From: an uncultured Planctomycetota bacterium
GTDB lineage: Bacteria; Planctomycetota; Planctomycetia; Isosphaerales; Isosphaeraceae
Length of the DNA stretch: 64,000 nt
Assembly (NCBI GenBank): GCA_963737655.1
Contig: CAVTTN010000002.1
Span: 2,624,001-2,688,000 of the forward strand
Direction of reading: 5' to 3'
Position 1 is the first letter of the stretch. Each line of letters starts with the position of its first letter. Below the pieces are notes generated by a model, which was not told the DNA's origin, ran no database searches, and was given only the letters and a program-made list of their open reading frames with translations. The position numbers were made by a program, and so were the translations under genes. This document shows, in pieces, positions 39,701 through 57,305 of this stretch.

Positions 39701-40213
39701 TGGGTGGGGGCCTCGGGGGCCGGGACGGCCCTGCCCGAAGCCCGGGCGAGCACCCATCCGTACCTCTTCGCCCGAGGCGGCGATGCGCCTTCGATTCGCC
39801 CGACCATCGTTTCGCGGGCGATGCTGGTGGGGGCGTGCTCCGGGGCGGCCCTGGCCCTGGCCCTCGCCGGCCTGCTCGTCCGTCCTCTGGGCTCGTTCGC
39901 CTTCAAGACGGCCCCGGTGGCGATCCTGGCGGCCGGGGTGTTGGTCCCGGCGAACCTGCTGATCGTGGCGGGGCAGTCGGCGGCGATCGGGGCGGTCCTG
40001 GCGATCGTGGCGGCGGCGACCCAGGCCGCCGTGGATCGAAGGCGGCCGACCCGCCCGGCGTTTTCGGACCCCAGCGGCCTGCTCGTCGCGGCCGGAGGCG
40101 TGGGGCCGGCGGAGGTCGGTTCGGAAGGTTCGACGATCGTCCGCCCCCGGGCCGGGACGACCGCCGACCACCTGCCGGCTCCGGCGGCGTCCCGGCCCGA
40201 TGGGCCTCCCTGA
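36758..40213 (+). CDS. Large membrane-anchored hypothetical protein (beta-sandwich-like repeats, C-terminal TM helices)
   Basis: 1151-aa ORF with a signal-like hydrophobic stretch, alternating beta patterns and 3 hydrophobic segments near the C-terminus. Confidence 0.7.
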   Translation: MVMSPRPAGKSVSGRRRDRSRAASGPVERRLAPLRLLASNRLAFALLLGLGASSRADDPPSRGPSDPPPIYVIVDAPTDLDSLLKKLGRPDFVILKGGQYDRLRALEAKPPTPDPPRAVVEAVSASGEVVDDLAHLTIDLRVSLVGPEPSWVPIRLDGPTVREAREGDRALPLRTVEGSWQVEVRGEGTHKVRVDAVSPVLTVRGLPDLRRVEWAIPEAASTRVELSLPAGASEAFAIGGASGREPLAVEPIEAGQRGRIAASLTPRRRLELTWRAAPDPGPVGPPLLTAVGEIALTVERGSVRARSSWDVQSQRGTARRLELRIDPADELVALECDGRPVSGEGPVDPASGTVVVPLPEPLRPQSTTRLVVTTRRALAPGSASRMTYRGVPLVGVASQRGVIAVSETGGDPWVSGSAGRGLRRVDPKGELTSGLRNQPSIVLAYSFNEQPFELGLQVDPSPPWVRAESRTTVIVEPGRARVDSWLEFAVSRGRVFEVKIAVPPGMIAETIGPEGTISGFERTDDEAGPALVARLSARASEDRAFRVHLTGSQAIETAGPAPVEVGLFRPMGVQSRGGRVAVLAPRDLGVDLPATASSAFVPAGLEPPAGWDWPADRGGAPLPPALWLRHDEAASSLPIKVTPRVRSIREETTVEARISRRRLDLRQDSWLRVEAAALTRVDVAVPAELEGRWEAEGTEVARREPLGPGPDGAPRHRLTLAHEVVDSVRLRFRSVVPIDPGLAPDRSAPVDLPRIAILGTSAEPPRVVVSADEGLDLSPEGPGWAPPLAEDSGAARDGGPPVRLVRSGVPASGPPARVRASALATADLPTIVASRCLLRTSAEPDGSLRTSAHYRLEVHEGGLSLSLPEGAILSRVRVGEEAAEVERLGDRPGSYRVPLLAGTTGPATVSLDFALPRGGDVWSAPRLLEGGVVQETLWEVRVPWSSAVLGVPEGWSDSNEWYWAGYALMRRPAVPAEGLRAWVGASGAGTALPEARASTHPYLFARGGDAPSIRPTIVSRAMLVGACSGAALALALAGLLVRPLGSFAFKTAPVAILAAGVLVPANLLIVAGQSAAIGAVLAIVAAATQAAVDRRRPTRPAFSDPSGLLVAAGGVGPAEVGSEGSTIVRPRAGTTADHLPAPAASRPDGPP

Positions 40214-40248
40214 GTCGGCCCGCGATTCCGGCCCGAGAGGTCCGCCCG

Positions 40249-43200
40249 ATGTCCCGTCTCCATCGGCCTTTGCGCCTCCTTTTCCCGCTCTTCCTGGCGA
40301 TCGTCCCCGGCATGATGGGGGCCGGTCCCGAGGTCGTCCGGGTCAGCGTGCCGGCGGGCCGGGTCAAGGACGTGTTTCCTCCGGGAACAGAGATCCGGTC
40401 GCTGCCCCGCGACGAGTTCGAGGCACTGGTGAAGGAGGCGAGCCGGCGAGGCTCTCGGGCCGTCGAGACCGCGCCCGGGCCCTCCGCGCCCGCCATTCGG
40501 CCCGGTGGGAGGCCGGGGCCCTGGTCGGACGATCCGAAGTGCTGGTGGAAGGGGCCGTCGGAGGCGGCCCCGGCCTGGCGAGCCTGGATCCCTGGTCGCC
40601 GGCCCTGGCACCTTCGGGCGACTCGGTGCGATCGGGGCCCGACGGCCGGCTCGGGCGGAAGGTCGCGGCCCCGGGGCCCTCGACGGTCACCCTGGATTGG
40701 GAGCAACGGGCCCGGCCGGGGACCGAAGGCCGGGCGTTCGACCTGGCGTTGCCGGACCTCGCCGCCACGAGCCTGACGATCGACCTGCCCGCCGGCTGGC
40801 TGCCCGAGGCCCCGGGCACGCTCCGGCAAGGGCCCGCGCCGGGGTCGTCGGCCGATCGGCGGTCGTGGCGGCTGGACGGGCCGGGCGGGGCCTGGGCCTT
40901 GACGCTCCGGGGCGCCGACGGTCCCGGCGCGCCGGCCGGGCCGTCCTGGGTCTCCGGGACGACCCGGATCGACCTGGGCGAATCCCCCCCGCGATGGCAG
41001 GCCGAGTGGACCGTCGATCCGGGGAGCGCGGGGCCTCGCTCGTTCTCGTTCGAGCTGCCGCCGTCCCTGGAGTGGATCGACGCGGCGGGCCCGGCGGTGG
41101 CGACGAGCCGGGCCGAGCCTTCGGGGCCGTCGGGGACGGTGGTGACGGTCCGCCTGAGCGAGGGAGGGCCGTCGTCGGTGATCGTCCGGGCGGTGGCGAA
41201 GGGGCCCGAAGACGGCCCGTGGACGGTCCCGGCGGCGATCCCCAGGGACGCGACCTGGACCGGGGGCCGAACGGTCGTCCGGCTCGGGGCGGCCCAGGTC
41301 GTGGCGTCCTGCCGGGAGAGGTCCGGCCGCCAGGTCTCGCCCCGGGCCGACGAGGCCGAGACCGCCCGGGGCGGGACGATCCTCGCCTTCGAAGGCGAGG
41401 CGCCGGGCCCGGTGGCCGATCTGGTGATCCGCCGCCCGCCGACGGACGTCTCGGCCGAGGTCCGCGGGACCTTGAAGCTCGGCCCTCCCCGGATCGAGGC
41501 CGCCGTGACGTGGCGGGTGGACCGAGGGCGGGTCTTCCCGATGGCCCTGGACCTGCCCCCGGGCTGGGTCCTCCAGGGCGTCCGGCTCCGGGGCGAGACG
41601 GCGGAGACCGCCTGGCACGTCGAGGCCCGCCCCGGAGGAGGCGCCCGGCTGGTGGTCCGCCCCCCCGCGGCGGCCGACCCGGCGGAGCCGATCGTCCTGG
41701 ACCTCTCGGCCGACGCCCCGTCGTCCGCTCGGTTCGGGCCCCTGGATTTGCCCCGGGTCTCGCCGGTGGGGGTGAGGGCCGGCGACGAGGTCTGGACGCT
41801 CCGGGCCGATTCGGCGGTGGCCGTGGCGCCGATCCGGGCCCGGGGGCTGGCGTGGATGGACCCGGCCTCGATCGCGGCCGATCCCGCCGGCCCGTCGCCC
41901 CCGGTCGCGTCCCCTCCGCCGATCCTGGCCTGGCGGTGGACGGCCGCCGACGGCCGGGGCGTCCTGGAACGGAGGAAGGCCGCCGAGATCCGCACGGCCT
42001 CGGCCTGGGTCCGGGCCTCTCTCGACGCCGACCGCCTCCGCCTGGACCTCTTCGCCTCCGTCCCCGAATCCGGCGACGAGGCCACGACCGTCCTCCTCGG
42101 GACCGACTCGCCCCTGGACCCTCCGCCAGTCTGGGAAACTCAGGATGGACGTGCGGTCGAATCGGCGGCGATCCCGGAGGCCGAGAGGGCGGCGCTGGGC
42201 CTGCCCGCCGGAGGATCGGCCTGGAGGCTCCGCGTCCCCAACGCCGGGGCGGGCCGCCCGGTCCTCCACGGCCGATCCGATCGCAAATGGACCGGCCAGG
42301 GCCGTCTGCCGATCCTGGCGATGCCCGGCGCCGATTTCGTTCGGGGCGGAACGCTCGTGGCGGTCGCCCGGGGGATGCGCTCGGTCGTTCGCGCGGAGGG
42401 CCTCCGGGCGCTGGACCCCTCGGCGGCGTCGGCCGAGTTCCGCCGGTCGATCCGGCCATCGGGAAGCGGGGAATCGGCGACGGCGCCGGGGGCCAGTCCG
42501 GGCCGAGTCGCCCACGCCTTCGCCCCCGACGGCCGGGAAGGCTCGCTCCGGCTGGAGACGTCCACCCTGCCCGCCGAGGGGCGGAGTGGCCTGGTCGAGA
42601 GGGCCGAGCTGGAGACGGGGCCCGGAGGCGCGGGGCCGTCGCGGGCCCGGCTGACCCTGCGGATCGTCCCCGGGACCGAGCCGGCCCTGAAAATCACCCT
42701 GCCCGACGGCGCCCGCCTGGAACGGGCCCGGCTCGACGGGCATCCGATCGTCCCGTCCGAGACGAAGGGGGCCTTGCGAATCCCCCTGCCCCCGGCCTCG
42801 ACCGATGGCCGGACCCATGACCTCGTCCTGGACTACGAGACGGCCGCGGGCGATCCCGCGTTGCCCTCGATGTCCGTGCCCTGCCTGGCTTTTGGCTGGT
42901 CGCTGGACGTCCGCGGATCGCTCGACCTGGAGCAGGTCGGGCCGGGGTTGATCGACTCGACCCCCCGTGCCGGCCCTCCCGAGTCGCCCAGGATCCTCCC
43001 CGGCTCGGCATGGTCGAACGCCCCTCCCGAGGCGACGAATCCGGCGATCCTCTCCGACCTGGACGCCCGGGCCCGGCGAATCGCCTCGTCCGGGCTGTCG
43101 CTGGGAGACTGGCTGACCCGCCTGGATTCGAGCCGATTTCCTTTGGTGATCGATCGCCGGGCGATGGAGGGCCTGGGTCTGGGGCCGAAATCGTCGCTTC

Positions 43201-46200
43201 CCCGGGGTCCGGCGGCCGGGACGGAGGTCCTCGGTGCCCTGGGACTTGGGGCGTGGCCCCTGGAAGGTGTGGTGATGCTCTCCGACCGCCCGCCGCCGAC
43301 GGCCGAGGCCGATCCCGAGGGCCGGTCGGCCTGGGCCGCCACGGTTCGGGCCGCGATCGTCGAGGGCTCCGACCCGGCCGATCGGTTCCAGGCCGTCGAG
43401 CGATGGGCTCGCGAGGCCGCGCCTCCTCCCCCGGCCGACGACCCGCCGGATTCCGGCCGGATCGTGGCCCTGGAAGCGGCCGGGTGGCCCGATCGCGGGG
43501 CGACCGTGACCCTGGACGACCGATCGGCGAGGCGGACCCGGGCCGTCCTCCTCTTCGCGGCCGTCGTGGGCCTGGGCGCGGCCTCGGGGCGTCGGCGGAT
43601 GCGAATCCGGGCCGGGATCTGGGCGCTGGGGACGCTCTCAGCGGCTGGAATCCTGGCGATCGGCCCGGCCGCGCTTCGCGAGGCCGCGTCGGCCGTCCTC
43701 TGGGGCGCCGTGGCAGTCCCGGCGATCTGGCTCGGACGGTCCATCCGTTCCGATCGGCCGGGACCGGGCCGGGACCCGCGCTCCCGGGCCTCTCGGCGGC
43801 CCTCGATGCGATCGGGCTCGACCCTGGCCGTCCTCGTCGCGACGTCCTGGGTCGTCGGCGCCCCGAGGGCCGACGACCCGGCGGGCGAGCCGCCGATCCT
43901 GGCGTTGATCCCCTACGATCCGCCGCTCGACCCCGAGCGGCCGGGGAAGGACGTCCTGTTGCGGCTGGAGGATGACGCCCGCCTCCGAAAACGGGCGACC
44001 GCCGCCGAGGACCGGCCCTCGACGTCCGCCGGGGTCTTCGGCGCCTCGCACCGGATCGCGGCCGACGGCCCGTCGGAGGCCCGGATCACCAGCGAGTTCG
44101 ACCTTGTGCTCGGGCCGACCGACGGCTCGGAATGGTCGTTTCCGATCGAGGGGGCCCGGGACGTGTCGGCCCGGCTCGACGGCAAGGACATCCCGGTCCG
44201 GATCACCTCGGGGGGCAAGTCGGGGACGATTTCGCTCGCGGGCGAGGGCGTCCACAAGCTGACCGTCGATCGGAGGATGGCCCGGACGAAGCAGGAGGGC
44301 GGCACCGGGCTCCGCCTGAGCGTCCCCCCGGTGGCGACGGCACGGGTCGCGGTCGAGGCGACGGCTCCGGGAGAGGCCGTGGACGTGCCCAACGCCCGGG
44401 GGCGCCTGGCGGAAATGGGCGGCGGGGTGGCCGGGCCTCTCGGGCCGGTCGGCTCGGTGGAAGTCCGGTGGACCCCCCGGGAGGCGGCGGGCCGGAGCCG
44501 ACCCCGCGGGGAGGTGGACGTCCTGGCCCTCTGGGACGTGGAGCCGGCCGGAGACCACGTGAGGCTCCGGCTGTCCCCGGCCTCGGCCGAGGGGCTGTCC
44601 CGCGCGGTGGTGAAGCTGGGGCCGGGGGTGCTGGTCCGGTCGTCGAGCCTCCCCGGCCGCCTTGTCCAGGACGAGAAGGGTTCGACCTGGTCGGCCCGGC
44701 TCGACCCGCCCCGGAAACCCGGCGAGTCGATCGCCCTGGAACTCTGGAAGGCCGCCCCGCCGATTTCCGCCCCGTCCGCGACGCCCTCGCCCAGACGGTT
44801 GCCTCGATTCGAGCTCTCCGAATTCGAGAAGGTCACGGGCCTGCTCGGGGTCCGGAGGCCGGGCGAGTGGACCGGGAGGCTCGGGCCGGCCCCGGGACGC
44901 GAGGCGGTCGCCGACGACGTGTTCGACCGGGCCTGGGGGCCGTTGCCGGCCGGAGGAGGGACGCTCGCCGGGGCCTTCCGGTTCGCCGGCTCGCCCGAGC
45001 TGGACTTCCCCACCGGCCCCGAAGCCCCGCGATCGGTCGTCCAGCCGGCCGTGCTCCTGGAGATCGGCCCGGGACGGCTCGACCTCCATTTCGAGGCCGC
45101 CTGGGCCGACCTCGCCGGCCGGACCCGGGAGGTCCGCGTCCGGGTGCCCAGAGACCTCCGCGTGGTCCGGGTCGAGGCCCCCGGATTGACCGACTGGGGC
45201 CGGTCGGCCGAGGACCGCCTGCGGTTCCGGTTCGACGGCCCGCCCAGCCCGTCGAGGACCATCCGCATCGATGGCTGGGTGCCGATCGACGGCGACCCGA
45301 TGGACCCCGGGACCGCCCGGAACCAGGCGGACGTCCCCTGGCCCGTCCCCCTGGACGCCGACCTCCAGCCCGGGACTCTCGCCGTGGCCGCCCCGGCGAA
45401 CGTCCGGTTCGAGCTCGTCGGGGCGGCCGAGGCGATCCCCTCCGCCCCCGGAGGGCCGATCCGCTCGACCTATCGCGTGCCTCCGGGCGAGGTGCCCGGC
45501 CGATTGGCCTGGGCCGCGGAACCCTCGGGGGTGAACGTCCTGGTCCGCAGCCTGTTGCGGGTCCATCCCGACTCCTCCGAATGGGCGGCCGTGGTCCGCT
45601 ACCGGATTCCCTGGGGCCCCTGCCCTCCGGTCCGACTCCGGTTGCCGACGGAGTGGGCCGAGGCGGCGAGGGTCGAGATCCTCGGCCGCCCCGTCGTGCC
45701 CGAGGCCCTGGTCCAGGGCGATTCGACCGTCTGGACGTTCCGGCCCGAGCCTCCGGCGTGGGGGTCTCTCCAGGTGGCGATCCGGGCGTCTCGCCCCCGG
45801 CCGCCCAAGGCCCCCCTGGCGTTCCCGGACCTCGTCCCCCTGGGCCGGGCCGCCGCCGACCGGGTCGATTCGTACCTCGCCGTGGCCGACGCCTCGGGCC
45901 TGGGCCTCGTCCCCGAAGGCTCCGCGGGCCTCCAGCCGGTCGAGGCGTCGCGCTGGGGCGACGGCGGGTTCCCCCTGCCGGCGGGGACCCGCGGCGTCTA
46001 TCGAGTCCTCAGCGAGGGCTGGTCCCTCCGGCTGATCCCCCGGTCCGAGCCCGCGGGGGAAATCGACGGCCTGTCCGTGCCGACGGTGACCCTCGCCGAC
46101 CTCCTCTGCGTGGTGGCGCCCGACGGCTCCAGCCTCGGCCGGGCCTCGTACCACCTCGACGATCCCTCCTCGGCCTTCCTCCCCCTGATCGTTCCGAACG

Positions 46201-47102
46201 GGATCGAGGCGCTCTCGGCGACCGTGGACGGCTCGGCCGTCTCGCCCAGACGCGACGGCCCCGATCGCCTGCTGATCCCCTTGCCCGACGGCGGGGCGTC
46301 GCGGGTCATCCTGTTGTGGAAGGCCCCGGCGGGCCCGGACCTCCCCGTCCCGGCGCTGATGACCAGGGGCGTGCCGACCCTCCTGGACGTGGCGGCCCCG
46401 GAGGCCGACCTCCTCCGGTCGAGCCTCCCGGCCAGCCCTCCCGACGCCCTCGGCGCCTCGCGGCTGGAGCAGCTCGCCCGGTCGATCGCCGATCGGATCT
46501 CGCGGATCGACCGCGGCTCGACCCGCGACCGCTCGGCGCTCCTCGGCGCCCTGATCCGGTTCGAGGCGACGGCCCGGCAAGTCGATCGGCAGGCGAGGTT
46601 CGCCCGACGAGGGGCCGCCGCGTTGCCCGAGCCGAGGGTCTCGGCCGCGAGGCAGGCGGTGGCCGAGGCGCTCTCGGGTTCGGGCCTGGAGGAATTCGGC
46701 CAATCGGCCCGGAGCCGTGTCGGCGAGGCGATCACCGACCCCATGCCCAGCCTCGCCACGCCGCCCCTCTCGCCCGAGCCCAACAACCTCCGCCGCCTGG
46801 GCAAGTCGAGGACGTTCCAGGGAATCCAGGCCGAGCCCGGAAGGCCCATCAAAGTCTCCCGGACGCCCCGCTCGACCCCAGTTCCCCGCCCGCCCGCCGC
46901 CCGATGGCTCCCGCCGTTGCTGCCGATCCTGGCCGGGCTCGTGCTGGTCGGCCTAATAGGCGGCCGAAGGTCGCGAATCTCCGCGGCGATCCTCACGGCG
47001 GCGGCCTCGGCCACCGCGACGATCCTCGGAGGAGGGCCCCTGGTTGCCGGGATCGCCGCGGGGGCCGTCGTTGTCGGCCTCGGTTGGCGCGGGACGAGGT
47101 GA
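40249..47102 (+). CDS. Giant (~2280 aa) membrane-anchored hypothetical protein, frameshift near 40475
   Basis: Signal peptide MSRLHRPLRLLFPLFLAIV in one frame joins the 2300-aa ORF in another; internal and C-terminal TM clusters. Confidence 0.7.
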
Positions 47103-47164: not shown

Positions 47165-47183
47165 CACGGATTTTCAATCCGTG
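47165..47183. repeat. Short palindrome (REP-like) downstream of the RAYT gene
   Basis: CACGGATT-TTC-AATCCGTG, perfect 8-bp stem. Confidence 0.45.
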
Positions 47184-47221
47184 GATCGGCGAAGGAGATG
47201 GGTTCGGGCCTGGTCCCGACT

Positions 47222-47881
47222 TCACGACGCCTTCCTCGGCCGCCCCCGGCCCCGGAGGGTCGATCCCAGGCCGAGCCGCTCGGCGGTGCGGAGGGTCCAT
47301 TCGTCGGAGCCGAAGGGCCGCTCGCGTTCCACGGACACGCGGAGCCGCCGGAGGTCGCCGGCCGACAGCGGCTCGTTGACCCGCTCGACCCATCCCGGCC
47401 CCCGCGGGTCGGGCTCGCCTCGCCAGAGGAGGGCATCTCCCGCGAGCCATCCGGGCAGGCTCGACCACTTCCAGTGCTCGGCCCTTGCGACCAGCTCGGC
47501 CCTCAGGGGGTTGCGCTCGACGTAGCGGAGGACGGCGGCAAGGTGGTCGTCGTCCTGGACGGGGAAGGCCTTGTAGCGGCCCTGCCAGACGTGGCCGGTG
47601 GTGCCGTAGTGTCGGTGATAGCGGAGGGCGTGGGTGGTCAGGAGCCGACGCATCCACCGGCCGAGGTCGCCGTCGGCGTGGGGTCGGAGGACGAGGTGGA
47701 AGTGATTGGGCATCAGGCAGTAGCCGAGGAGGTCCATCGGCAAACGGCGGCAGGAGTCGGCGATGGCCTCGACGAAGGCGTCGTAGTCGGCGGGCTTGTG
47801 GAAGACGGATGCGCGGCGGTTCCCGCGGTTGAGGGCGTGGTAGGGGAGTCCGGCGACGGAGGCGCGAGCGGTGCGTGGCAT
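47222..47881 (-). CDS. rayT: REP-associated tyrosine transposase (RAYT, Y1 HUH transposase family)
   Basis: YHALNRGN, YCLMPNHFHL (HUH), GHVWQGRYKA, catalytic YVERNP, WKWSS, C-terminal RGRPRK. Confidence 0.92.
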   Translation of the reverse strand: MPRTARASVAGLPYHALNRGNRRASVFHKPADYDAFVEAIADSCRRLPMDLLGYCLMPNHFHLVLRPHADGDLGRWMRRLLTTHALRYHRHYGTTGHVWQGRYKAFPVQDDDHLAAVLRYVERNPLRAELVARAEHWKWSSLPGWLAGDALLWRGEPDPRGPGWVERVNEPLSAGDLRRLRVSVERERPFGSDEWTLRTAERLGLGSTLRGRGRPRKAS

Positions 47882-47887
47882 GTCGGG

Positions 47888-47916
47888 AGTCTAGGAACCA
47901 CGAATCGCGGCGTCAA
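47888..47916 (-). promoter_or_regulatory. Sigma70-type promoter of RAYT, leaderless configuration
   Basis: Minus strand reads TTGACG-17 nt-TAGACT-6 nt-ATG. Confidence 0.65.
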
Positions 47917-47940
47917 TAATTTCCTCCGTCCCCTTTTCCG
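47915..47940. repeat. RAYT-adjacent repeat AATAATTTCCTCCGTCCCCTTTTCCG
   Basis: Identical over 26 bp to 53073-53098 and related to the clusters at 53.75-53.94 kb and 55.06-55.55 kb. Confidence 0.85.
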
Positions 47941-48199
47941 CCCTTATAATTTTACAGGAATTACTAATATGCAAAATTCATCACTTTATAATAATCTATA
48001 TGAGTTTTCGTATTACCAGATTAATGACCAGTCCCCTAATACGAAAAACCAGGAGGATGGCAAACAAGAGCCTGCCCAGACGACGCCCCAACCCAAACCT
48101 TCGCCCGCACCTCCAGCTCTTCCTTCCAAACCCCTACCAAATAATGTGATTATACTTGAACCTGCGCTGCGCCAGTATGGAATCCATTTTTTCCCCTAA

Positions 48200-49814
48200 T
48201 CAGTAGTTTCCCTGGAAATCGACACTCTCGTCGCGACGTCGCGTAGCATCTCCGTCCCCTCGACGCCGCCGAGCGGCTCCCGAGGCCCTGAAAACCAGGC
48301 GTCCGACACCTTGAGTGCGTCGGATCCATCTGCGATACTTCATCGCGGCCTACACTCAGGCCACTTTCTCCTCGTGTTTCAGCCAGTTCGAGAGGAGACG
48401 CTGGATTTCCGGCCGATGACGCCTCAGCAACCGCTCCACGTCCAGCACGCTCGCTCGGTCCTTCTTCTTGTTCCACGGCGGCGGCGACCACCAATCCGTG
48501 CATCCTCGCTCATCCAACGCGAATTGCAACAGCCGCAGCAGGCTCATAGTGATCCATTGCACCTGCGTCGTCCGCTCGATCGGCGACTTCGTCCAGGCTC
48601 GACACTCCTCCCATCCCAGCCTCTGCTTCAGGTCCCGGAACCCGTCCTCCTGGCGGAACCTCGCGGCGAACAACTCGACCATCTCCAACCCGCTCAGACC
48701 CAACGCCGAACTCACCACCGTGAATCGCTTCTGGTAACCCTCGACCTCGGCCACCACCGCCTTGACCGTCACGTCATGTCCGAGCACCCGCCAGAGGCAG
48801 GCGATCTCCTTCCAACGGACCTTTCGCACCCGGCCGTAGATAAAGGCCTCGCCCTTCTTCCAATCCCCGGGCCAGCGTCCCCCCTGGCGAGGCGGGGACA
48901 GCTTCTTGCCCCACACGGGAGTCCGGCCTCGTTTCCCCTTGGGTCGCTTGGCCGGCGGCAGGGCGTGGAGTCGGGCGTCGTGCCGCAACCGGGTCAGGAA
49001 GTCGATGCGAGGCAAGCCCTCTTCGGCCATGACCAGTGGCCGAACGACATTCTTCAGGGCGTAGCCGCCGTCGAAGACGCCCAGGTGAGGCCCGGCGTTG
49101 ATCCGGGCCTGTTCCCGCAGCAGTTCGACGGCCAGTTCGCACTTGGTCCGGAAGACCTGCTTGGGGCCGGCGACGCCACAGCGGAAGGGGAGTTGCGACT
49201 TGCGGAAGTAGAGCCGCCCGGAGATCGGCAGATACCAGGCGGGCTGGCCATCGTTCTTGAGCAAGGCCCCGAGGCAGACCCAGTTGTGAGCCCGGACGGT
49301 GGTGGCCCGGTTGGGACAGCGAGCGGTGTATTCGTGGAAGGTGCATGTGCCCCAGACGTGCTCGCCCGAGCGATGGACCTTGGTGTCATCGACGGCCGAG
49401 ATCCGATAGCCGTGCCAGATCCGGCCGGGAGCCTCGTCGATGAGTCCGGAGAGGTTGCTGGTGAGGATCTCGGGCTTCCAGACGGCGTACTCGGCGAAGG
49501 ATTCCAGGGCCTTCCAGTCGGCCAGTCGCTCGATGGCGACGACCGACTGGGTGATGGTGTGCTCCTCGACGTTGAGGGATAGAGCGGTGACCCACTCGAC
49601 GAAGCGGCGGTAGCCGGGTCGAGTGAATGCGGAGGCGAAGGGTTTGAGGAGTAGTTGCCAGAGGGACCAGACGACTGTAGCCTGCCGCATCGGGGCATCT
49701 CCGTTTGCGGAGTTGATGGGAGGGTAAGCACCCATCAAGGTCCGCTGGGGAGATGCCCCGCTCAAGATATACGGAACTTCAGATCGGTTGCTCGATTTTC
49801 AGGGAAACTACTGG
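48200..49814 (-). mobile_element. IS701-family element, apparently intact (transposase 48356-49690)
   Basis: 22-bp IRs CAGTAGTTTCCCTG(G/A)AAATCGA at 48201-48222 and 49792-49813. CTAA flanks both sides (48196-48199, 49815-49818). DDE motifs AVDDTK, VFDGGY, RFRQEDGFRDLK. Confidence 0.9.
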
Positions 49815-49894
49815 CTAATGGTCTCTTCAGATTTCCGGGGGGTATACCCCGGCCAGATCAGGTGGAGTAAACTCGGACGATTGCTGCGGGGCTC

Positions 49895-52800
49895 ATGGTC
49901 AACACACCCTCTCCGACACGGGCCGGTTTGATGTCGAAGATTGCGAATGAACGCAGCCTCCTGTTCGGGTTGCTCGCGCTTCAGAATGACCTGATCGCGC
50001 CCTCGCAACTGGTCGCGGCGTTCCACGCCTGGAGCCGCGACGCCGCCCGGCCGATGGCGGAGAGCCTTCGCGAGCAGGGGGCGCTCGACGACAGCGACGT
50101 CGGTCTGATCGAGGCCCTGGTTGCCAAGCATATCGCCCGCCACGATCACGACACGGAGAAAAGCCTGGCGGCCGTCGTGATCCCGGCGGCCGTTCGTCAG
50201 GAGATCGGGACCGTCGAGGCCCCGGACGTCGAAGCGACCCTGGCGCGAGTCACGGTCCGGGGCCCCTCCGAGAACACGATGTCTTATGTGGCGTCCCCCG
50301 CCGTCTCGGGGCGATTCCGGGTCGTCCGGCCTCACGCCAGCGGCGGCCTGGGGGACGTCTCCGTAGCGCTCGACGCCGAGCTCAATCGCCACGTCGCGCT
50401 CAAGGAGATCCGCGGCAAGTTCGCGAGCGACCCGATGTGCCAGGCCCGCTTCCTGCTCGAGGCGGAGATCACCGGCTCTCTCGAACATCCCGGGGTCGTC
50501 CCCATCTACTCCCTGGGCCGGAACCCCGACGGTCACCCGTTTTATGCGATGCGGTTCATCAAGGGGGAGAGCCTGAAGGAGGCAAGCGACCGGTTCCACG
50601 ACCCGAAGGCGCCTCCTCGCGAGGAGGGCGAACGGTCGCTGGCCCTCCGCCAGCTTCTGAGGCGGTTCGTGGACGTGTGCAACACGATCGCCTATGCGCA
50701 CAGCCGGGGCGTCATCCACCGCGACGTGAAGCCGGCGAATCTCCTCCTCGGGCCGTATGGCGAGACGCTCGTCGTGGACTGGGGGCTGGCCAAGGTCGTC
50801 GGGCGAGGCGGCGCCCGCGATGCGCCTCGTTCGGCCGAGGCGTCCTTGCATCCTTCGGCCAGCGGGGCGGCGGAGACCGTCGACGGCTCAGCGATGGGGA
50901 CTCCGGCCTACATGAGCCCCGAGCAGGCCGCCGGGGAGCTCGACCGCCTTGGGCCGGCGAGCGACGTCTACAGCCTCGGCGCGACGCTCTTTTACGTCCT
51001 GACCGGCAAGCCGCCGTTCGAAGGGGAGGTGGCGGAGGTGTTGCGGAGGGTCCGCGTCGGCGATTTCCGGCCCCCTCGGCAGGTCAAGGCCGACGTCCCG
51101 GCGTCACTCGAGGCGATCTGCATGAAGGCGATGGCGCTCCGTCCCGAGGATCGCTATGCGTCGGCCCGCGCCCCGGCCGACGACGTCGATCACTGGCTGG
51201 CCGACGAGCCGGTCTCCGCCCGGGTCGAGCCCTGGACGGCTCGGGGCCGGCGCTGGGTCCGTCGCCATCAGGTGGGGGTCGCGGTCGGCGTGCTCGCCGC
51301 GGCGCTCGCGGGCGTCTCCGCGGCGGCCGTCGCCCTGATCAGCGACTCCGCCCGACGCTCCGAGCACACGGCCCGGCTCGCCCTCGACCGGTCACTCAAG
51401 GGTGAGGTCGCCGCCCACGCCGAGGCCAGGGACCGACTCTTCGAGGCCGGTCGTGTCATCGACAAGTTCCTCACGAACGTCAGCTACGACCTGGCCCGCA
51501 TCCCGGGCACCCAGCCGCTCCGCATGAAGATGCTGGCCGCCGCCGCCGCCCACTTCGAGACGCTCGCGAAGGAAGATCCCGCGGGATCGTTTTATGCGAA
51601 GGCCCAGGGCGCGAACAGCCTCTATCGCGTGGGCCAGCTCCGCCGACAGATGGGGGACGTCAAGGGCGGGATGGGTGCCCTGGGCGACGCAATCGCGCGC
51701 TATCTCGACCTGGAGAAGGAAAATGGCACGAGCCCCGTCACGCTCGACGGGCTCGGCAACTCCTACATCGAGCTCGGCCTGGCCCGCCGCGACCTCGGCG
51801 ACCTGAAGGGGGCCGAGGAGTCCTGGCGGCTCGCCATCACGGCCCACGAGGCCGAGAGGAAGTTCAAACCGTCCGACCCGGGGGTACTCACCAATATCAC
51901 GTCCAGCACGACGAACCTCGGCCTCGCCGCGGGCGACCTCGGGGATTCCGACGCCGCGCTCGCGGCCTTCCGAAGGGTCGTCGAGCTGCGGAGCGGGGCC
52001 TTGAAGATTCGCCCGGATTTCCCCCTCTACGAGAACTTCCTGGGATCGGCCCATTCCGTGCTCGGATCGACCCTCCACGATTGCGGACAACTCTCGAAGT
52101 CCCTGGACTCCCTGAAGGAGGCGATCCGGATTCGCGAGAGACTCCTCGCGCGCGAGCCTGAGAATCCGGACCTCGTCTCCGGCCTCCTCTGGAGCCGAAC
52201 CAGCGAATCGGCGGTGCTCCGGGACCTCGGCCGTCTTGACGAGGCCGCCGAGCTGGTCCGTCAGGGCGAAGATCGTGCGAAATCGCTTCTCGGCAGTAGC
52301 CCCGGCATCCCCGAATATCTCGAATTGTTGGGTCAGCTTCAGGTCGATCGGGCCCGCGTGGCGCTCGCAAGAAATCATCCCGACGAGGCGGAGGCCGCGT
52401 CGCGACGGGCTGTGGCCACCTTCGGCCTCGCGGTCGATCGCCAGCCGGACTTCCCGGCCATCCGGTCCCAATGGGACGAGACGAGAATCCTGCTCGCCGA
52501 GAGCCTGCGCAAGCTCGATCGCCCCCGGGACGCGCTCGACGACCTCGAACGCGTGATGAAGGACCTCGATACCCTGGCGGAAAAATTCCCCCATCTGCGC
52601 CGGATCGCCGCACGCCGGGCCTCGGCCCATGCCCAGCATGGTGCCCTCCTCGCCGCCATTCAACCCGACGACCCGGCCGAGGCGGCGCTCCGCGACGCGA
52701 CCGAGAGGGCCGCCGACCTGGCGCGTCGATTCCCGACCTATCACGAATATCACGGCCGTGCCGCCGAGGCGGCCCACGACCTGGCGCTCTTGCTGGTCGC

Positions 52801-52975
52801 CAGGAAGAAGGCGAAAGAGGCGGAGGCGGCCTACGAACTCGCCCTCCGACATCAGGCCGACGCGGTGAAGCTCTGCCCCGAGGCCTCCGCGTATCGCGAC
52901 CGCCTCGCCGCCTATCAAAGCGCTCGCGAGGAGCTCGCCAGCGTCCCGGCTTCGGCCGCTCCTGTCCCTCGTTAA
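49895..52975 (+). CDS. Serine/threonine protein kinase with TM segment and TPR repeats
   Basis: GGLGDV, VALKE, HRDVKPAN, VVDWGLAK, GTPAYMSPEQ, SDVYSLG; TM helix followed by TPR-like helices. Confidence 0.92.
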   Translation: MVNTPSPTRAGLMSKIANERSLLFGLLALQNDLIAPSQLVAAFHAWSRDAARPMAESLREQGALDDSDVGLIEALVAKHIARHDHDTEKSLAAVVIPAAVRQEIGTVEAPDVEATLARVTVRGPSENTMSYVASPAVSGRFRVVRPHASGGLGDVSVALDAELNRHVALKEIRGKFASDPMCQARFLLEAEITGSLEHPGVVPIYSLGRNPDGHPFYAMRFIKGESLKEASDRFHDPKAPPREEGERSLALRQLLRRFVDVCNTIAYAHSRGVIHRDVKPANLLLGPYGETLVVDWGLAKVVGRGGARDAPRSAEASLHPSASGAAETVDGSAMGTPAYMSPEQAAGELDRLGPASDVYSLGATLFYVLTGKPPFEGEVAEVLRRVRVGDFRPPRQVKADVPASLEAICMKAMALRPEDRYASARAPADDVDHWLADEPVSARVEPWTARGRRWVRRHQVGVAVGVLAAALAGVSAAAVALISDSARRSEHTARLALDRSLKGEVAAHAEARDRLFEAGRVIDKFLTNVSYDLARIPGTQPLRMKMLAAAAAHFETLAKEDPAGSFYAKAQGANSLYRVGQLRRQMGDVKGGMGALGDAIARYLDLEKENGTSPVTLDGLGNSYIELGLARRDLGDLKGAEESWRLAITAHEAERKFKPSDPGVLTNITSSTTNLGLAAGDLGDSDAALAAFRRVVELRSGALKIRPDFPLYENFLGSAHSVLGSTLHDCGQLSKSLDSLKEAIRIRERLLAREPENPDLVSGLLWSRTSESAVLRDLGRLDEAAELVRQGEDRAKSLLGSSPGIPEYLELLGQLQVDRARVALARNHPDEAEAASRRAVATFGLAVDRQPDFPAIRSQWDETRILLAESLRKLDRPRDALDDLERVMKDLDTLAEKFPHLRRIAARRASAHAQHGALLAAIQPDDPAEAALRDATERAADLARRFPTYHEYHGRAAEAAHDLALLLVARKKAKEAEAAYELALRHQADAVKLCPEASAYRDRLAAYQSAREELASVPASAAPVPR

Positions 52976-52978
52976 CGC

Positions 52979-53104
52979 GGAAGACCCGGAAAAGGGGAAG
53001 ATCCGGAAAAGGGGAAGACCCGGAAAAGGGGACGACGACCCGGAAAAGGGGACGGAGGAAATTTCAGCTGGAAATAATTTCCTCCGTCCCCTTTTCCGGG
53101 TCGT
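52979..53104. repeat. Repeat cluster A: four tandem CCGGAAAAGGGGA units ending in a perfect 29-bp inverted repeat with a 12-nt loop
   Basis: ACGACCCGGAAAAGGGGACGGAGGAAATT (53035-53063) and its reverse complement (53076-53104). Confidence 0.9.
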
Positions 53105-53146
53105 TTTCGGTCCCCGCACGAAAACGCTGACAAGAGCCAAATCGGT

Positions 53147-53356
53147 TCACGAGGAGGAGGTCTTATGCGCGGCCATGAGTTGGCGGACGGCCGGAAGAAG
53201 TTCCTCGGGGATCGTGATGACGGTCTGCCCGACCTGCTCGGTCATCGCCGCCTCGTCATCGGCCACCTGCTCGTCCTCGGTCATGCTCTCGTAGTAATCG
53301 ATCAATTTCTTGACACGATCCGCGTCCCAGCCGGCCGGGAATCTCGACTCACTCAT
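53147..53356 (-). CDS. Putative antitoxin
   Basis: 69-aa acidic ORF whose ATG overlaps the upstream toxin stop (ATGA); FPAGWD.DRVKKLIDYYE..TEDE motif. Confidence 0.65.
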   Translation of the reverse strand: MSESRFPAGWDADRVKKLIDYYESMTEDEQVADDEAAMTEQVGQTVITIPEELLPAVRQLMAAHKTSSS

Positions 53357-53628
53357 CGCCTCTTCCTCCGTCGATACGCCTGGAGTGCTTTACCCCGGAT
53401 CTCGTAGGCCGTAACCACGAAGACGCCATCGCCTTCTTGGTCGGGAACAAAGATGACGTGCAGGTATCGCCCGGAACACGTCTGCCCCAACACATGGCGG
53501 GAAGCGTCTCGGCCCGAGCGATCCTCGCCGGGATGCCGCAACACGTACTCCACCTCGTCCTCAGTGACCCCATGCCCGTAGATGTGCGGCAGGCCGGAAT
53601 CCGGGTCGAAGTGGTAACGAACATCCAT
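53353..53628 (-). CDS. Putative BrnT/DUF4258-like ribonuclease toxin
   Basis: HGVTEDEVEYVL...LGQT.SGRYLHVIF...FVVTAY..YRRR pattern typical of BrnT-like toxins. Confidence 0.7.
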   Translation of the reverse strand: MDVRYHFDPDSGLPHIYGHGVTEDEVEYVLRHPGEDRSGRDASRHVLGQTCSGRYLHVIFVPDQEGDGVFVVTAYEIRGKALQAYRRRKRR

Positions 53629-53744
53629 TGGCGAGCCTCGACGGCCCTAGGGAACACGCCCTCATCTTACCCAGAGGGCAGCTTCCGCTGCAAACTCGTC
53701 GTCCGCCCCTTCGGTCCTCGTCCACCTTGTCCCGACCGAACCTC

Positions 53745-53940
53745 AGGGCGGAAAAGGGTACGGGGGGGCGGAAAAGGCGACGGGGGAAATTATCAAAAGG
53801 GAACGGAGCGTTGGAGCGGAAGAGGAGGTGGAGTCAAGAATTCCCTCCGTCCCCTTTTCCACTCCCGTCCCCTTTTCCACTCCTCGTCCCCTTTTCCACT
53901 CCTCCGTCCCCTTTTCCACTCGTCGTCCCCTTTTCCACTC
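53745..53940. repeat. Repeat cluster B: two left-arm copies, a ~45-nt insert, and five tandem right-arm copies (CGTCCCCTTTTCCACTC)
   Basis: Read directly from the sequence; the arms are inverted relative to each other. Confidence 0.88.
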
Positions 53941-54176
53941 GTGCGGGATTGGAAACCGAGATCGTGATGCCGCTTTCCCCGAAACTCTGCCTCCACGGCA
54001 GCCACCAGCCAACGAATAATTACTCGTACGTGGAGGCCAAGCAGAAGGTCATCCGCGAGATCAATAAGCGGATCGTGAGTCAGGCCACCCGATTCGTCTA
54101 CGCGCCTGACAAGCCGACGTGGCTGCCCCCGCTTCAGGCCCGGAAGGATTTGGGCGTGATGCGGATCGGGTGGTGA
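53941..54176 (+). pseudogene. C-terminal gene fragment, DUF4238-like
   Basis: EIVMPLSPKLCL...IREINKRIVSQATRFVYA resembles DUF4238 C-termini. It starts abruptly at the repeat boundary. Confidence 0.45.
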
Positions 54177-54181
54177 TTCCC

Positions 54182-54880
54182 TCAATCGCGCTTCGACCGC
54201 ACGGCGTCGATCTCGCAGCCGTGCAGATAGTAAACCCCGTACACGCTCGCCAATTGTCCATCGAGGCGGGCGCGGGTCTGGTTGATGAGTTCGGATCGCC
54301 ACCGCCTCGGAAGGTGGCTCCAGGTGTCCACCCTGACGAGGATCGCGGTGAGCGGGTCGTACCGGCCCGACAGCACTTTCCTTTCCGCCCTCTCCAATGC
54401 GACTGCGATCCAGCCGTCGTACTGCTCCGCCATATCCGCCATGCGCAATGGGCGTAGCATTTTCTTCTTCCCGACCGTCTGCGACAGGGCGGGCCGATGG
54501 ACCGTGCCGTTCTCGGCCAACTGCTGGCGGGCGAACACGGTTTCCTCGGTTTCGGTGGTGGTGACCTCCACCCTGATTTCGAGAGGCCTGAACCCGGCTA
54601 CGCGCAGCGTGGCATCGTACGGCTGGCCGCCCGTCAGGCACCGGATGAAGACGTCCTGCATCGGCGCGACGAACCGCAGGCCAAGGTAGCCGACCGGAAT
54701 TACCTCCTCGATGAGCTTTTTGACGTTCCTTCCGCTCTGGTTGAAGTAGATCGAGTCGAAATCCGGGGTGGCTTCCATCGCGTTGAATTGCGCGTTGATC
54801 CACCGCCACATTTCAAAGATGTGCCGCTCCTGCTCGTAATCGGCGGTCTCGATTTCGAAGGGAGGAGCGACCATATGCAT
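54182..54880 (-). CDS. Hypothetical protein, possible PD-(D/E)xK-like nuclease fold
   Basis: Lower-GC ORF with a PYDA...IRVEVT motif; start uncertain (54874, 54880 or 54976). Confidence 0.55.
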   Translation of the reverse strand: MHMVAPPFEIETADYEQERHIFEMWRWINAQFNAMEATPDFDSIYFNQSGRNVKKLIEEVIPVGYLGLRFVAPMQDVFIRCLTGGQPYDATLRVAGFRPLEIRVEVTTTETEETVFARQQLAENGTVHRPALSQTVGKKKMLRPLRMADMAEQYDGWIAVALERAERKVLSGRYDPLTAILVRVDTWSHLPRRWRSELINQTRARLDGQLASVYGVYYLHGCEIDAVRSKRD

Positions 54881-55058
54881 GCACTCGGCTTGCGTGGTGG
54901 GTTTCGCCTTGAGTATACGGAACAACAGGGGTGGCGGAAAGGGAAGACACCGGGCAGGCGAGTTCGCGAGGCTCAACTTCCCGATGGCGGCATAGCTGTA
55001 CCAATCGGGGTGCCGCGTCGCCCCACACCTCTCGCCCGCACGATTTGGTACAGCGATT

Positions 55059-55551
55059 GGGATGGGAAAAGGGGACGGGGATGGGAAAAGGGGACGGAGG
55101 AAATTCTCGGCGTTTCGTTCCTCAAGATGCGGGAAAACGGGATGTCAGGCAAGTCCACATTCAACTTTCCAAAGCATATTTCTCTCCGTCCCGAATGCCA
55201 TGAACGTCCCGAATGCCATGAAGTTAAGGGTTAGTCGTTGCCATTTCGGGGGCTGCGCCCGGGGGCGTCGAATTCCTTAGAGGTTGTCGCTTGTGGACTC
55301 TAGGGGCTTGCTGAACTATGGCCTCGGGAATTCGCGGTTCGGCCAAGTTGCGGACGCCGACCGGATGCTCGAAGGGATTCGGCGTCCCCGGGGCAGCACC
55401 CGAAATGGCAACGACTAACCATTAACTTCATGGCATTCCTCTCCGTCCCCTTTCGCCGTCCTCGTCCCCTTTCGCCGTCCTCCGTCCCCTTTCGCCGTCC
55501 TCGTCCCCTTTCGCCGTCCTCCGTCCCCTTTCGCCGTCCTCGTCCCCTTTC
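55059..55551. repeat. Repeat cluster C: two left-arm copies, a ~72-nt insert, a right arm interrupted by a MITE, then six tandem CGTCCCCTTTC copies
   Basis: GGGATGGGAAAAGGGGACG x2, then GAGGAAATT; alternating 20/19-bp units at 55441-55551. Confidence 0.88.
55193..55438. mobile_element. Non-autonomous IS4-family-like MITE with ~68-bp imperfect terminal IRs and an 11-bp target duplication
   Basis: Ends GAATGCCATGAAGTTAA... and ...TTAACTTCATGGCATTC. CTCTCCGTCCC at 55182-55192 and 55439-55449. 18-bp tandem duplication at the left junction. Confidence 0.8.
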
Positions 55552-55613
55552 TCACTCACGACCTCCTCCCGCCAGGTCGGACCGGGCCTGATGCCGGGGC
55601 GAAGGCGGGCGGT

Positions 55614-56714
55614 TCACTTCATAACGATCTTGAACAGGTCGAGGTCGCCACCGCCGGGCGTGACCGTTCCCACGAAGGAGCAGCCCGTCGCGGACGTCTT
55701 CATGTTCTGCCAGGTCGTGTCCTGGTAACCCGTCGCCGTCTTGGTCCGGATCATCTGCTGGCTCCGCTCCGTCGAGGCGTGGAGGAGGTAGCCCCCGTCG
55801 GCCAGCGACTGCCAATCCACGTTACGGACCCACGCCGAGCAGACGATCTGGATCTCGGGCCTGTCGCTCAAGGGGTCGCCCAGCACTTCCTTCTCCAGGA
55901 CTCCTCGATTGTGGTCGAAACAGATCTCGAACCCGAAGTGGATGCCCCCTATCTGCTTCCTCCCCGTCTTGCACCCCGGAGGCGAGATATGAAACTCAGA
56001 ATCGTCTTTCTGGACGCCATGCAACTCCTTGTATCCCGCCTTCTTGACGTACTTGTGTTCCAGGTCCCCGTTGAGGAATACATACGCTTGATTTTTATAA
56101 ATATAAGATCCGACAAGAAAGAGGTCCGACTCCCGGGCCACGTGTTTGGCGAGCTTGTATTGCTTCTTGAAATCGGCCTCCGAGTCGGCGTTCTGCGTGC
56201 CGATCTGGGTCTTGAATTGCTTGAACTTCGCCGGGAGCTTCTCCGTTCGTGCGCCCTTGAACTTCTCGCCCAGCGGGATTCCGTCGGAGTCGAGCTCCAC
56301 CTCATTCCGAATGGTCGCGGCGGACTTCACCCTGGAGGGATTGCGGTTCTCGGCCCGTTCCATGGACTTGCGGAACGCGACCGTCCCCGGAACGAAAAGG
56401 ATCCCCTTCGCGGATCGGCTCATCGCCTGGAGCCTGATCAGGATCTCGTCCTTGTAGTTCTCCTCGATCGGATAGTCTGAGGTCTTGTTCCCCCCGAGAT
56501 TGATCTGCTTGCTCACCATGTATTCCGGTGCGACGAAGATGCCCTTGATTGTGTTGAGGGACGGGTTGGTCTTTGCGGCGAAGAGCATATTCTCCTGGAT
56601 CGATTCTTCGAACTTCCACAGTGCATTTCCGAGGCACTTCAATCGATCATCGATGCTCTTCTCTCGCATTTTATGACCGAGGGAGTAGAGGCCCACAAAG
56701 ATCAAGGTGCTCAT
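55614..56714 (-). CDS. Carbon-nitrogen hydrolase (nitrilase superfamily)-like protein
   Basis: IFVAPEY (Glu), ILFVPGT, YVKK (Lys), FGFEICFDH (Cys) in nitrilase order; Lys-rich, lower GC. Confidence 0.65.
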   Translation of the reverse strand: MSTLIFVGLYSLGHKMREKSIDDRLKCLGNALWKFEESIQENMLFAAKTNPSLNTIKGIFVAPEYMVSKQINLGGNKTSDYPIEENYKDEILIRLQAMSRSAKGILFVPGTVAFRKSMERAENRNPSRVKSAATIRNEVELDSDGIPLGEKFKGARTEKLPAKFKQFKTQIGTQNADSEADFKKQYKLAKHVARESDLFLVGSYIYKNQAYVFLNGDLEHKYVKKAGYKELHGVQKDDSEFHISPPGCKTGRKQIGGIHFGFEICFDHNRGVLEKEVLGDPLSDRPEIQIVCSAWVRNVDWQSLADGGYLLHASTERSQQMIRTKTATGYQDTTWQNMKTSATGCSFVGTVTPGGGDLDLFKIVMK

Positions 56715-56874
56715 GAGGGTCTCCGCCTGGAGTTCCGGCGCGATCGATCGGGCGTGAAGGGGAGGGTCGGATCACGGGACGGGTCGGCGTCGGAGCGGGA
56801 CCTCGTCGTCGATCGCCGAAATTGTCCACAGATCGTAGATGAATGCTAGCGCATTCTCCAGGACTCGGAAAAGG

Positions 56875-57165
56875 AAGCAAAAGGAGGTCAGATCCGTAAG
56901 CAAAAGGAGGTCAGGAGCGAATGGCACAAAGCGAAGCGAAAACCTCTGGTGCATCAGCAGTTAGAGCAGATTCCCGGCATGTTTCCGAGAATGAATGCTC
57001 GCATGCGCACGAACCGATCAATTCATGATGTCTGGTATATTGCTGTATATTTGATACATTTCACGTCTGCATTATATTCAGGAACAATAGCCGGGCATGA
57101 GTTGGAAACTTAATCGAGTTAAGGTTTTGCGCCTTCCTTTAGTGCCATTCGCTCCTGACCCCTTG
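56875..57165. repeat. Repeat cluster D: second inverted-repeat family around an AT-rich ~175-nt core
   Basis: GGTCAGGAGCGAATGGCAC (56909-56927) and GTGCCATTCGCTCCTGACC (57142-57160), perfect 19 bp and ~45 bp imperfect. AAGCAAAAGGAGGTCAG is duplicated at the left outer end. Confidence 0.8.
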
Positions 57166-57305
57166 TCACGCTCGGCCGCTTGACCTCCAGGATCAAGAGG
57201 TACACCCCTAGACCCGTTGTTCACGGGCGGGCCGATGCGTCGAGCGGCTGGTCCGGCTAGACTGGGACGGTTCTCGCTGGAACCTGGACCCGGTGGACCT
57301 TCGCC

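Follow-up and report, generated by a model that had tools for sequence, protein, structure and literature searches.

A TIRYT-class transposase gene and its dispersed terminal inverted repeats, which probably invade and trim accessory DNA in a planctomycete genome

The stretch of DNA analyzed here, referred to as the window, comprises 64,000 nucleotides (G000:C2:2624001-2688000) of a 7.6 Mb genome (G000; 68.7% GC) whose gene content suggests a planctomycete host. It includes an accessory island in which an intact gene for a Y1/HUH tyrosine transposase, a 22-mer repeat beside its promoter, and four further groups of repeats alternate with genes and gene fragments (Table 1). To judge from sequence, the gene is a TIRYT, the tyrosine transposase of a TIRtron, with the 22-mer as its terminal inverted repeat (TIR).

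Table 1. Features of the transposase gene and the adjoining island, in window coordinates.
Feature	Position	Strand	Remarks
TIRYT, Y1/HUH tyrosine transposase	47222..47881	-	219 aa, intact; Pfam Y1_Tnp, E 7e-16; no 3' TIR past the stop
Sigma-70-like promoter, TTGACG-17-TAGACT	47888..47916	-	ends 6 nt ahead of the ATG; transcript predicted to be leaderless
5' TIR of the transposase	47918..47944	-	GGGG foot at 47933; outer arm of 11 nt
AT-rich orphan fragment	47945..48200		abuts the TIR outer arm; runs on for ∼90 bp past the insertion sequence; GC ∼50%; no Pfam match; no twin in the genome
IS701-family element	48201..49813	-	NCBIfam IS701 above cut-off; 3 other copies at 99.8-99.9%
Ser/Thr kinase-TPR gene, whole	49895..52975	+	runs against the transposase; belongs to an expanded family
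Four tandem TIR units and a 29-bp perfect inverted pair	52983..53104		12-nt loop
Two-gene toxin-antitoxin-like pair	53147..53628	-	DUF4258 protein of 91 aa; partner of 69 aa
TIR mini-element	53745..53941		five tandem units; 48-bp interior framed by two degenerate inward units
DUF4238 gene, 3' remnant	53942..54176	+	corresponds to residues 213-290 in a homologue of 291 aa; cut where the TIR array has its outer end
Orphan ORF, ∼247 aa	54182..54925	-	homologues in 0/200 other genomes
Composite of two nested TIR mini-elements	55060..55558		outer tandem arrays of 2 and 6 units
Whole ORF, 366 aa	55614..56714	-	nitrilase fold likely
Mini-element of the second TIR family	56898..57173		GGGGTCAG foot; interior of 196 bp; forms the island's right end

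The Y1_Tnp domain confirms the intact RAYT-type gene (REP-associated tyrosine transposase, REP being a repetitive extragenic palindrome) reported in the preliminary description of this DNA. The gene caller mis-called its strand, and those calls were used for neighboring genes only. Among 69 homologues, H60 and H62 are invariant and Y120 is conserved in at least 90%; the catalytic motifs are NHFH and a tyrosine within YVERNP (the Y---NP motif). The C-terminal tail is conserved and helical in the structure model (pLDDT 93.9; closest PDB entry 4er8), with no Pfam helix-turn-helix match. The motifs NH[YF]H and W[EQ], the 'SS' tail, and the length of ∼238 aa given for TnpA-Y1 subclass 2.1 are matched here by NHFH, WQ, WSS, and 219 aa, by inspection against the published table and not with the authors' profiles. 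The fusion of the repeat to the promoter, also described previously, is borne out, and this promoter-beside-TIR layout recurs in relatives. The 3' TIR is missing both from the window copy and from its 96% twin at C2:4.02 Mb, and we class the window transposase as what is left of a TIRtron with one end rather than as a full element. A third TIRYT in this genome (L318:2300-2992; G000:C2:804829-805491) is 59-61% identical and has its own GGGGACATT-type TIR.

The assignment of the repeat to the transposase, proposed earlier, follows from its relatives. The closest of these (79% identity) has a window-type TIR on both sides of the gene. At 47 of 76 homologue loci, a set with some redundancy, the gene lies within an inverted TIR pair, and similarity of TIR interiors follows that of the proteins (Mantel rho 0.34, n = 37, 0/2000 permutations, among kin that are not independent). 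Homologues occur in 24 of the 41 genomes searched, G000 counted in, and none of 30 records from a plasmid collection covers 80% of the protein. One related genome (G024) harbors three TIR-to-TIR copies of 730-737 bp, 98% identical, on three contigs with unrelated flanks, so the element moves without cargo.

The repeat class is already published: tyrosine transposase genes framed by TIRs were named TIRYT/TIRtron by Di Nocera, De Gregorio, and Rocco (2013; PMC3733652). An entry for this TIR family, or for a TIRYT from a planctomycete, may exist in Figure 9 or the supplements of PMC3733652 and PMC6006769, which lay outside our scope. According to the text consulted, TIRYTs are TnpA-Y1 subclass 2.1, found in ∼15% of the strains sampled (Quentin, 2018; PMC6006769), and the same class as RAYT group 1 (Bertels, 2017; PMC5581495), while TIR families reach moderate copy number and occur singly, as dimers, or clustered, a GGGGWSAS-type foot being common to some of them only (PMC3733652). 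The present system resembles these in having a Y1/HUH gene tied to non-GTAG TIRs with a GGGGWS foot, and in repeats dispersed in these three arrangements, likewise at moderate copy number; it differs in that the window copy lacks the 3' TIR and that the main foot is GGGGACGG, not GGGGWSAS (the second family, GGGGTCAG, fits at all 8 positions and the main TIR at the first 6). The consulted text of the TIRtron/TIRYT papers mentions neither a cleavage site nor deletions or duplications of flanks nor a link to cargo, and no report of TIRYT cleavage site, activity, flanking deletions, or cargo capture was found in the literature searched (subscription papers, figures, and supplements were outside its scope).

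At three or fewer mismatches the 22-mer has six matches in the window (47918, 53042, 53076, 53770, 53839, and 55084), where 0.00 were expected from 100 shuffles. The earlier statement that it was not seen elsewhere holds for the rest of the window, which has no further match at this threshold, but not for the genome, in which there are 11 exact matches and 36 at two or fewer mismatches, and the 16-mer core forms 18 clusters. Read inward, the main repeat is AAAA-GGGGAC-GGAGGAAATT; the second family, already recognized, lies at 56909-57160. As had also been described, the repeat is not a GTAG REP: it lacks the GTAG foot, and a single copy has no palindrome and shows no tendency to fold (z 0.63). 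Of three pairs assessed, the 53.0-kb pair folds (z -10.1), and the 53.8-kb and 55.06-55.19-kb pairs fold no better than shuffles. Classical REP and CRISPR-like readings of the repeat are ruled out by its structure.

The repeat pairs in the window face inward, frame 12-350 bp of non-coding DNA, and carry tandem arrays on their outer side, so that genes sit between the elements and not inside them. The inverted pairs once taken to delimit cargo do exist, but their interiors are non-coding. The segment 55060-55192 has five twins at 85-91%, at C2:1.66 Mb and 4.02 Mb. Loose TIR patterns gave chance matches within genes, and the counts given here use stricter patterns. The TIR at window 53854-53835 (-) is followed by TTGACT, as the -35 box follows the TIR of the transposase, suggesting descent from the 5' end of a TIRtron. 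Another dispersed repeat family in this genome, palindromic and ∼140 bp long, occurs at G000:C2:290972-291115 and dozens of other sites, and a few of its copies lie inside TIR pairs.

The ends of the elements were located by counting outward from the first G of the GGGG foot (negative positions lie outside). In G000, 40 of 50 clean tandem duplications are compatible with a start at -11/-12. For short tandem units a fixed start is indistinguishable from a fixed end; among the long units, 7 of 9 start at -10 to -12, vs. 1.9 expected (P ∼3e-4). Of 34 dispersed pairs with a common 40-nt interior, 31 share 3-12 nt outward and the other 3 belong to a larger repeat. A repeated outer flank is present in 25 of 123 TIR runs; in none of these does exact identity extend past -10, and in 10 it ends at -10 to -14. 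The elements thus likely end ∼11 nt outside the GGGG foot, which would be the predicted nick, on the inward-reading strand. Duplication with a fixed start and a variable end would fit model 7B for BIMEs (bacterial interspersed mosaic elements), in which, by the text consulted, DNA is nicked, its 3' end is extended, and the product is rejoined to the 5' end that the enzyme holds (PMC3333891).

Sequence is missing at the same register. At C2:1680728 and C2:6792346, TIR pairs sit within copies of a multi-copy IS110 element, six intact siblings of which carry 1,019 and 1,269 bp where the TIR pairs stand, and the junctions fall at -10 to -12. In the window, the DUF4238 remnant begins no more than 2 nt from the -11 junction of a TIR. 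The flanks of TIRs have a GC content of 0.62, vs. 0.69 for the genome, and 19 of 32 lie below the genome's 10th percentile (these flanks include other TIR elements), which indicates that the repeats favor accessory DNA in G000. Both observations agree with the placement of repeats at boundaries of accessory DNA in the preliminary description. No clean empty allele of three mini-elements spans its site, the flanks having been deleted or deriving from different elements.

The same TIR type provides before-and-after comparisons in another host. It is present in Xanthomonadales, with 50-95 matches per genome in five Stenotrophomonas genomes, and at the loci inspected it forms mostly pairs between housekeeping genes. 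One TIR pair is present or absent between genomes with no cargo involved. Twenty sites were fetched from one genome (G219), and three were compared. The first is unchanged. At the second (L357:2036-4921), one of 5 genomes lacks a radical-SAM and DUF4130-UDG (uracil-glycosylase) gene pair that lies between two TIR pairs, and another keeps these genes beside a single TIR pair. At the third (L370:2067-2990), a toxin-antitoxin-like module ahead of transketolase occupies one locus in all 19 holders among 147 genomes; 8 of these 19 lack the TIR, including all six full-length, 79-80% diverged ones, while 17 of the 20 alleles fetched without the module keep one TIR pair. Since diverged alleles with the module are TIR-free and most alleles without it retain a single pair, the cargo likely came first, predating the repeats, and was lost between them. 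The crossover in hybrid single pairs falls inside the TIR pair. The module as a gained cassette was considered and rejected, as it is older than the repeats. No gain of a unit at TIRs was seen in Stenotrophomonas at these three of the 20 G219 sites, two loci reading as loss through crossover of two TIR pairs; the present-or-absent pair was gained or lost without cargo.

Several searches for movement of genes together with repeats gave no positive case. Among 102 TIR runs, the 10 matches that cross a TIR are all nested parts of mini-elements, and none represents flank, TIR, and interior moving together. No gene-length twins were found for 21 intervals, besides insertion sequences (IS), dispersed repeats, and one local overlap. 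Loci homologous to the toxin-antitoxin-like pair number 20, spread over 15 of 200 other genomes, with TIRs on both sides at one (L156) and weak single matches at two others. Homologues of this pair also stand on other platforms: L153 has a long direct repeat on both sides, and L154 and L157 have a GCCTAAC box past the stop, which presumably recalls attC. At 17 homologue loci of the transposase longer than 5 kb, distant matches to their own TIR never exceed 4, and 7 loci have none. One homologue locus (L207) does alternate TIR pairs and genes upstream of the TIRYT, its intervals holding a glycosyltransferase and VanZ in a polysaccharide-type run.

Among the genes called next to TIR clusters, 85 of 126 were scanned with Pfam, yielding one ParE, one DUF4329, and two type VI secretion system genes, the remainder being TPR, protease, kinase, metabolic, and uncharacterized genes; PADLOC, run on 22 proteins, returned generic kinase matches and one weak protease match. 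The enrichment in defense and toxin-antitoxin cargo that had been proposed is not seen in either set.

Taken together, we consider it rather probable that the window holds a TIRYT with one TIR and four gene-less mini-elements that invade and trim accessory DNA. The enzyme would nick single-stranded DNA ∼11 nt outside the GGGG foot, with 5'-phosphotyrosine chemistry presumed by analogy with TnpA-REP proteins, and would join the end to other 3' ends. By such joining, repeats would spread into accessory DNA, tandem copies would stack, and flanks would be deleted. Most genes of the island would have been present before the repeats, and those between the elements would be survivors of trimming, not cassettes. 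Several observations weigh against this account. Only 10 of 30 duplications in other genomes are compatible with -11/-12, a poor fit that may mean that the register is specific to each TIR family, and 15 of the 25 flank matches in G000 end further out (exact matching breaks at any substitution). The two IS110 deletions may descend from one insertion with separate deletions. Loss in Stenotrophomonas could reflect host recombination, and the tree there is poorly resolved. At the island itself, the esterase flank and the flank with the 2300-aa ORF are not adjacent in any relative fetched, and the genomes searched include no close strain of this locus; the flanks lack synteny in relatives, and the order of events is therefore inferred from other loci.

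Further observations of this kind concern duplications, and they bear on whether the repeats also bring genes in. In a possible but distinctly less probable variant, copying would start at the -11 nick, run through the element into the flank, stop at a variable end, and be joined at the nick site of a resident TIR, so that islands would grow by imprecise, one-ended uptake of genes and gene fragments; IS91/ISCR rolling-circle elements offer an analogy. TIRs bound both outer ends of the island at 1.66 Mb (L303:3180-6950; G000:C2:1662.7-1666.4 kb), which contains the sole Rhs core of the genome, a 160-bp duplication of flanking sequence (93%) from the 5' part of a core gene, and permuted Rhs-Hint toxin-tip pieces with a 243-bp overlap at 98.8%. 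The 4.02-Mb island has a 93-bp duplication (84%), an 897-bp duplication at a G024 locus stops 10 nt short of a foot, a pair in G014, close to contig ends of an assembly that is 60% complete, has the TIR and 1.2 kb of flank in common at 97.9%, and the outer arms at L156 are identical on both sides of the toxin-antitoxin locus. Transposase copies that comprise only 45-288 bp of the 5' end, three of which stop at -10 to -12 of the next TIR, the low GC of flanks, and an orphan Rhs tip in G024 that begins at the outer end of a TIR (L340) would be consistent with such uptake. Against it, cargo has no donor or twin in G000, the window island has no flank duplication, and Stenotrophomonas shows loss rather than gain; moreover, the long flank duplications fit one-ended capture but also insertion followed by one-sided deletion, which yields the same junctions. 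It is doubtful that TIRYTs are bacterial rolling-circle shufflers of gene fragments that build accessory islands and reshuffle planctomycete Rhs toxin-immunity tails, with the window as an accretion island. An Rhs core is present in 6 of 35 TIRYT or TIR loci of relatives, and Rhs toxin-immunity tails coincide with TIR pairs or TIRtrons, or have them nearby, at L340:7150-7700, L337, L149, L150, L144, and L146, both without a matched control. A G024 locus (L343:6812-10290) has a 1,740-bp tandem duplication with a TIRYT remnant and a YafQ-RelB pair.

If the transposase merely spread passive repeats, the deletions and duplications would stem from host recombination, from slippage of the polymerase on G-rich repeats, or from other IS that target the repeats. 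The hybrid pairs of Stenotrophomonas favor this, as do the IS of the DDE and IS110 families inside G024 TIRs (L146:10043-11883; L342:2261-6085; L145:10343-12313), from which it follows that TIRs serve as IS targets; a 1,846-bp TIR-bounded duplicated segment in G024, considered as moved cargo, proved to be a DDE-family IS inserted into a TIR. Passive repeats are nevertheless improbable as a full account, because junctions with unrelated DNA lack homology and concentrate at 10-14 nt outside the foot, and because the common start of long tandem units is not predicted by slippage. Farthest from the data is the integron-like platform of the preliminary description, with units of one gene and a repeat pair, excision as single-stranded circles, ordered insertion beside the transposase, and enrichment in defense and toxin-antitoxin genes. 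The hallmarks of integrons are IntI, attI, and attC. The likeness is that inverted repeat pairs and accessory genes are interleaved next to a recombinase-like gene, in the window and similarly at L207; the three intact small cargo units lie on the same strand as the transposase, and nick sites on the same strand would permit such circles. Yet the island ORFs scanned include no tyrosine recombinase, its genes differ in orientation, one of them is cut, one interval spans 5 kb, and there is no evidence of unit gain, and window-type repeats are found genome-wide and, in other hosts, between housekeeping genes. Few or no distant own-TIR copies accompany the transposase at the long homologue loci, the L207 intervals belong to a polysaccharide-type run, the scanned neighbors include only one ParE and one DUF4329 with an essentially blank PADLOC result, and a single toxin-antitoxin locus is TIR-flanked on both sides. 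No cargo is duplicated with its TIR in G000, TIR-to-TIR units move cargo-free, and Stenotrophomonas cargo was lost, not gained. As a general mechanism this platform is largely refuted, and we regard it as very improbable for the window.

Trimming by a TIRYT, as favored here, has a parallel in the REPtron/BIME/REPIN systems (TnpA-REP groups 2 and 3), with which it shares the fold (4er8 being the best match), non-autonomous repeat dimers, and a fixed-start tandem amplification that fits their nick-extend-rejoin model, as set out in the consulted text of PMC3333891 and PMC8266576. It differs from them in a repeat with neither a GTAG foot nor a single-repeat hairpin, in an inferred TIR end at a fixed distance where theirs lies at CT/CA sites (PMC3333891, PMC8266576), and in that the TIRYT gene is itself duplicated and mobile, whereas REPtrons, in the same text, are not. 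A subclass 2.1 TnpA-REP that lies next to prochlorosin genes is similar in subclass, in full and truncated copies amid variable genes, and in its proposed role as a diversifying recombinase; its authors, however, found no inverted repeats, and later noted that strong evidence for a causal link was lacking (10.1101/2020.03.09.984088).

The remaining genes of the island largely match the earlier list of cargo: the DUF4258 pair, the IS701-family element, the kinase-TPR gene, the DUF4238 piece, and the nitrilase-like ORF are all recovered, but a nuclease-like character of the orphan ORF (54182..54925) is unconfirmed, the atlas giving hypothetical clusters at 0.94-0.95 and DUF1780 at just 0.85. Orientation with the transposase holds for the three small units, but not for the kinase gene and the DUF4238 piece. 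The IS701-family element is an independent recent insertion, and the DUF4258 pair is a putative toxin-antitoxin system. In the nitrilase-like family, E64, K224, and C265 are invariant among 17 homologues, CN_hydrolase is matched in 3 of the 17 members (best E 0.014), and a PDB sequence search with the family gave nothing useful. Y1_Tnp was the only recombinase found among the island ORFs scanned, which include no IntI tyrosine recombinase. Left of the island, a 2300-aa ORF (window 40200-47102) has no credible Pfam match and is conserved within the family, in 13 of the 15 genomes searched.

The data from this genome allow the nick to be predicted precisely (∼11 nt 5' of GGGG, on the inward-reading strand), and they include natural before-and-after cases. 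If the trimming account is true, these repeats would be a source of kilobase deletions and of toxin-antitoxin loss; if the capture variant is true, they would represent a new route of island building.

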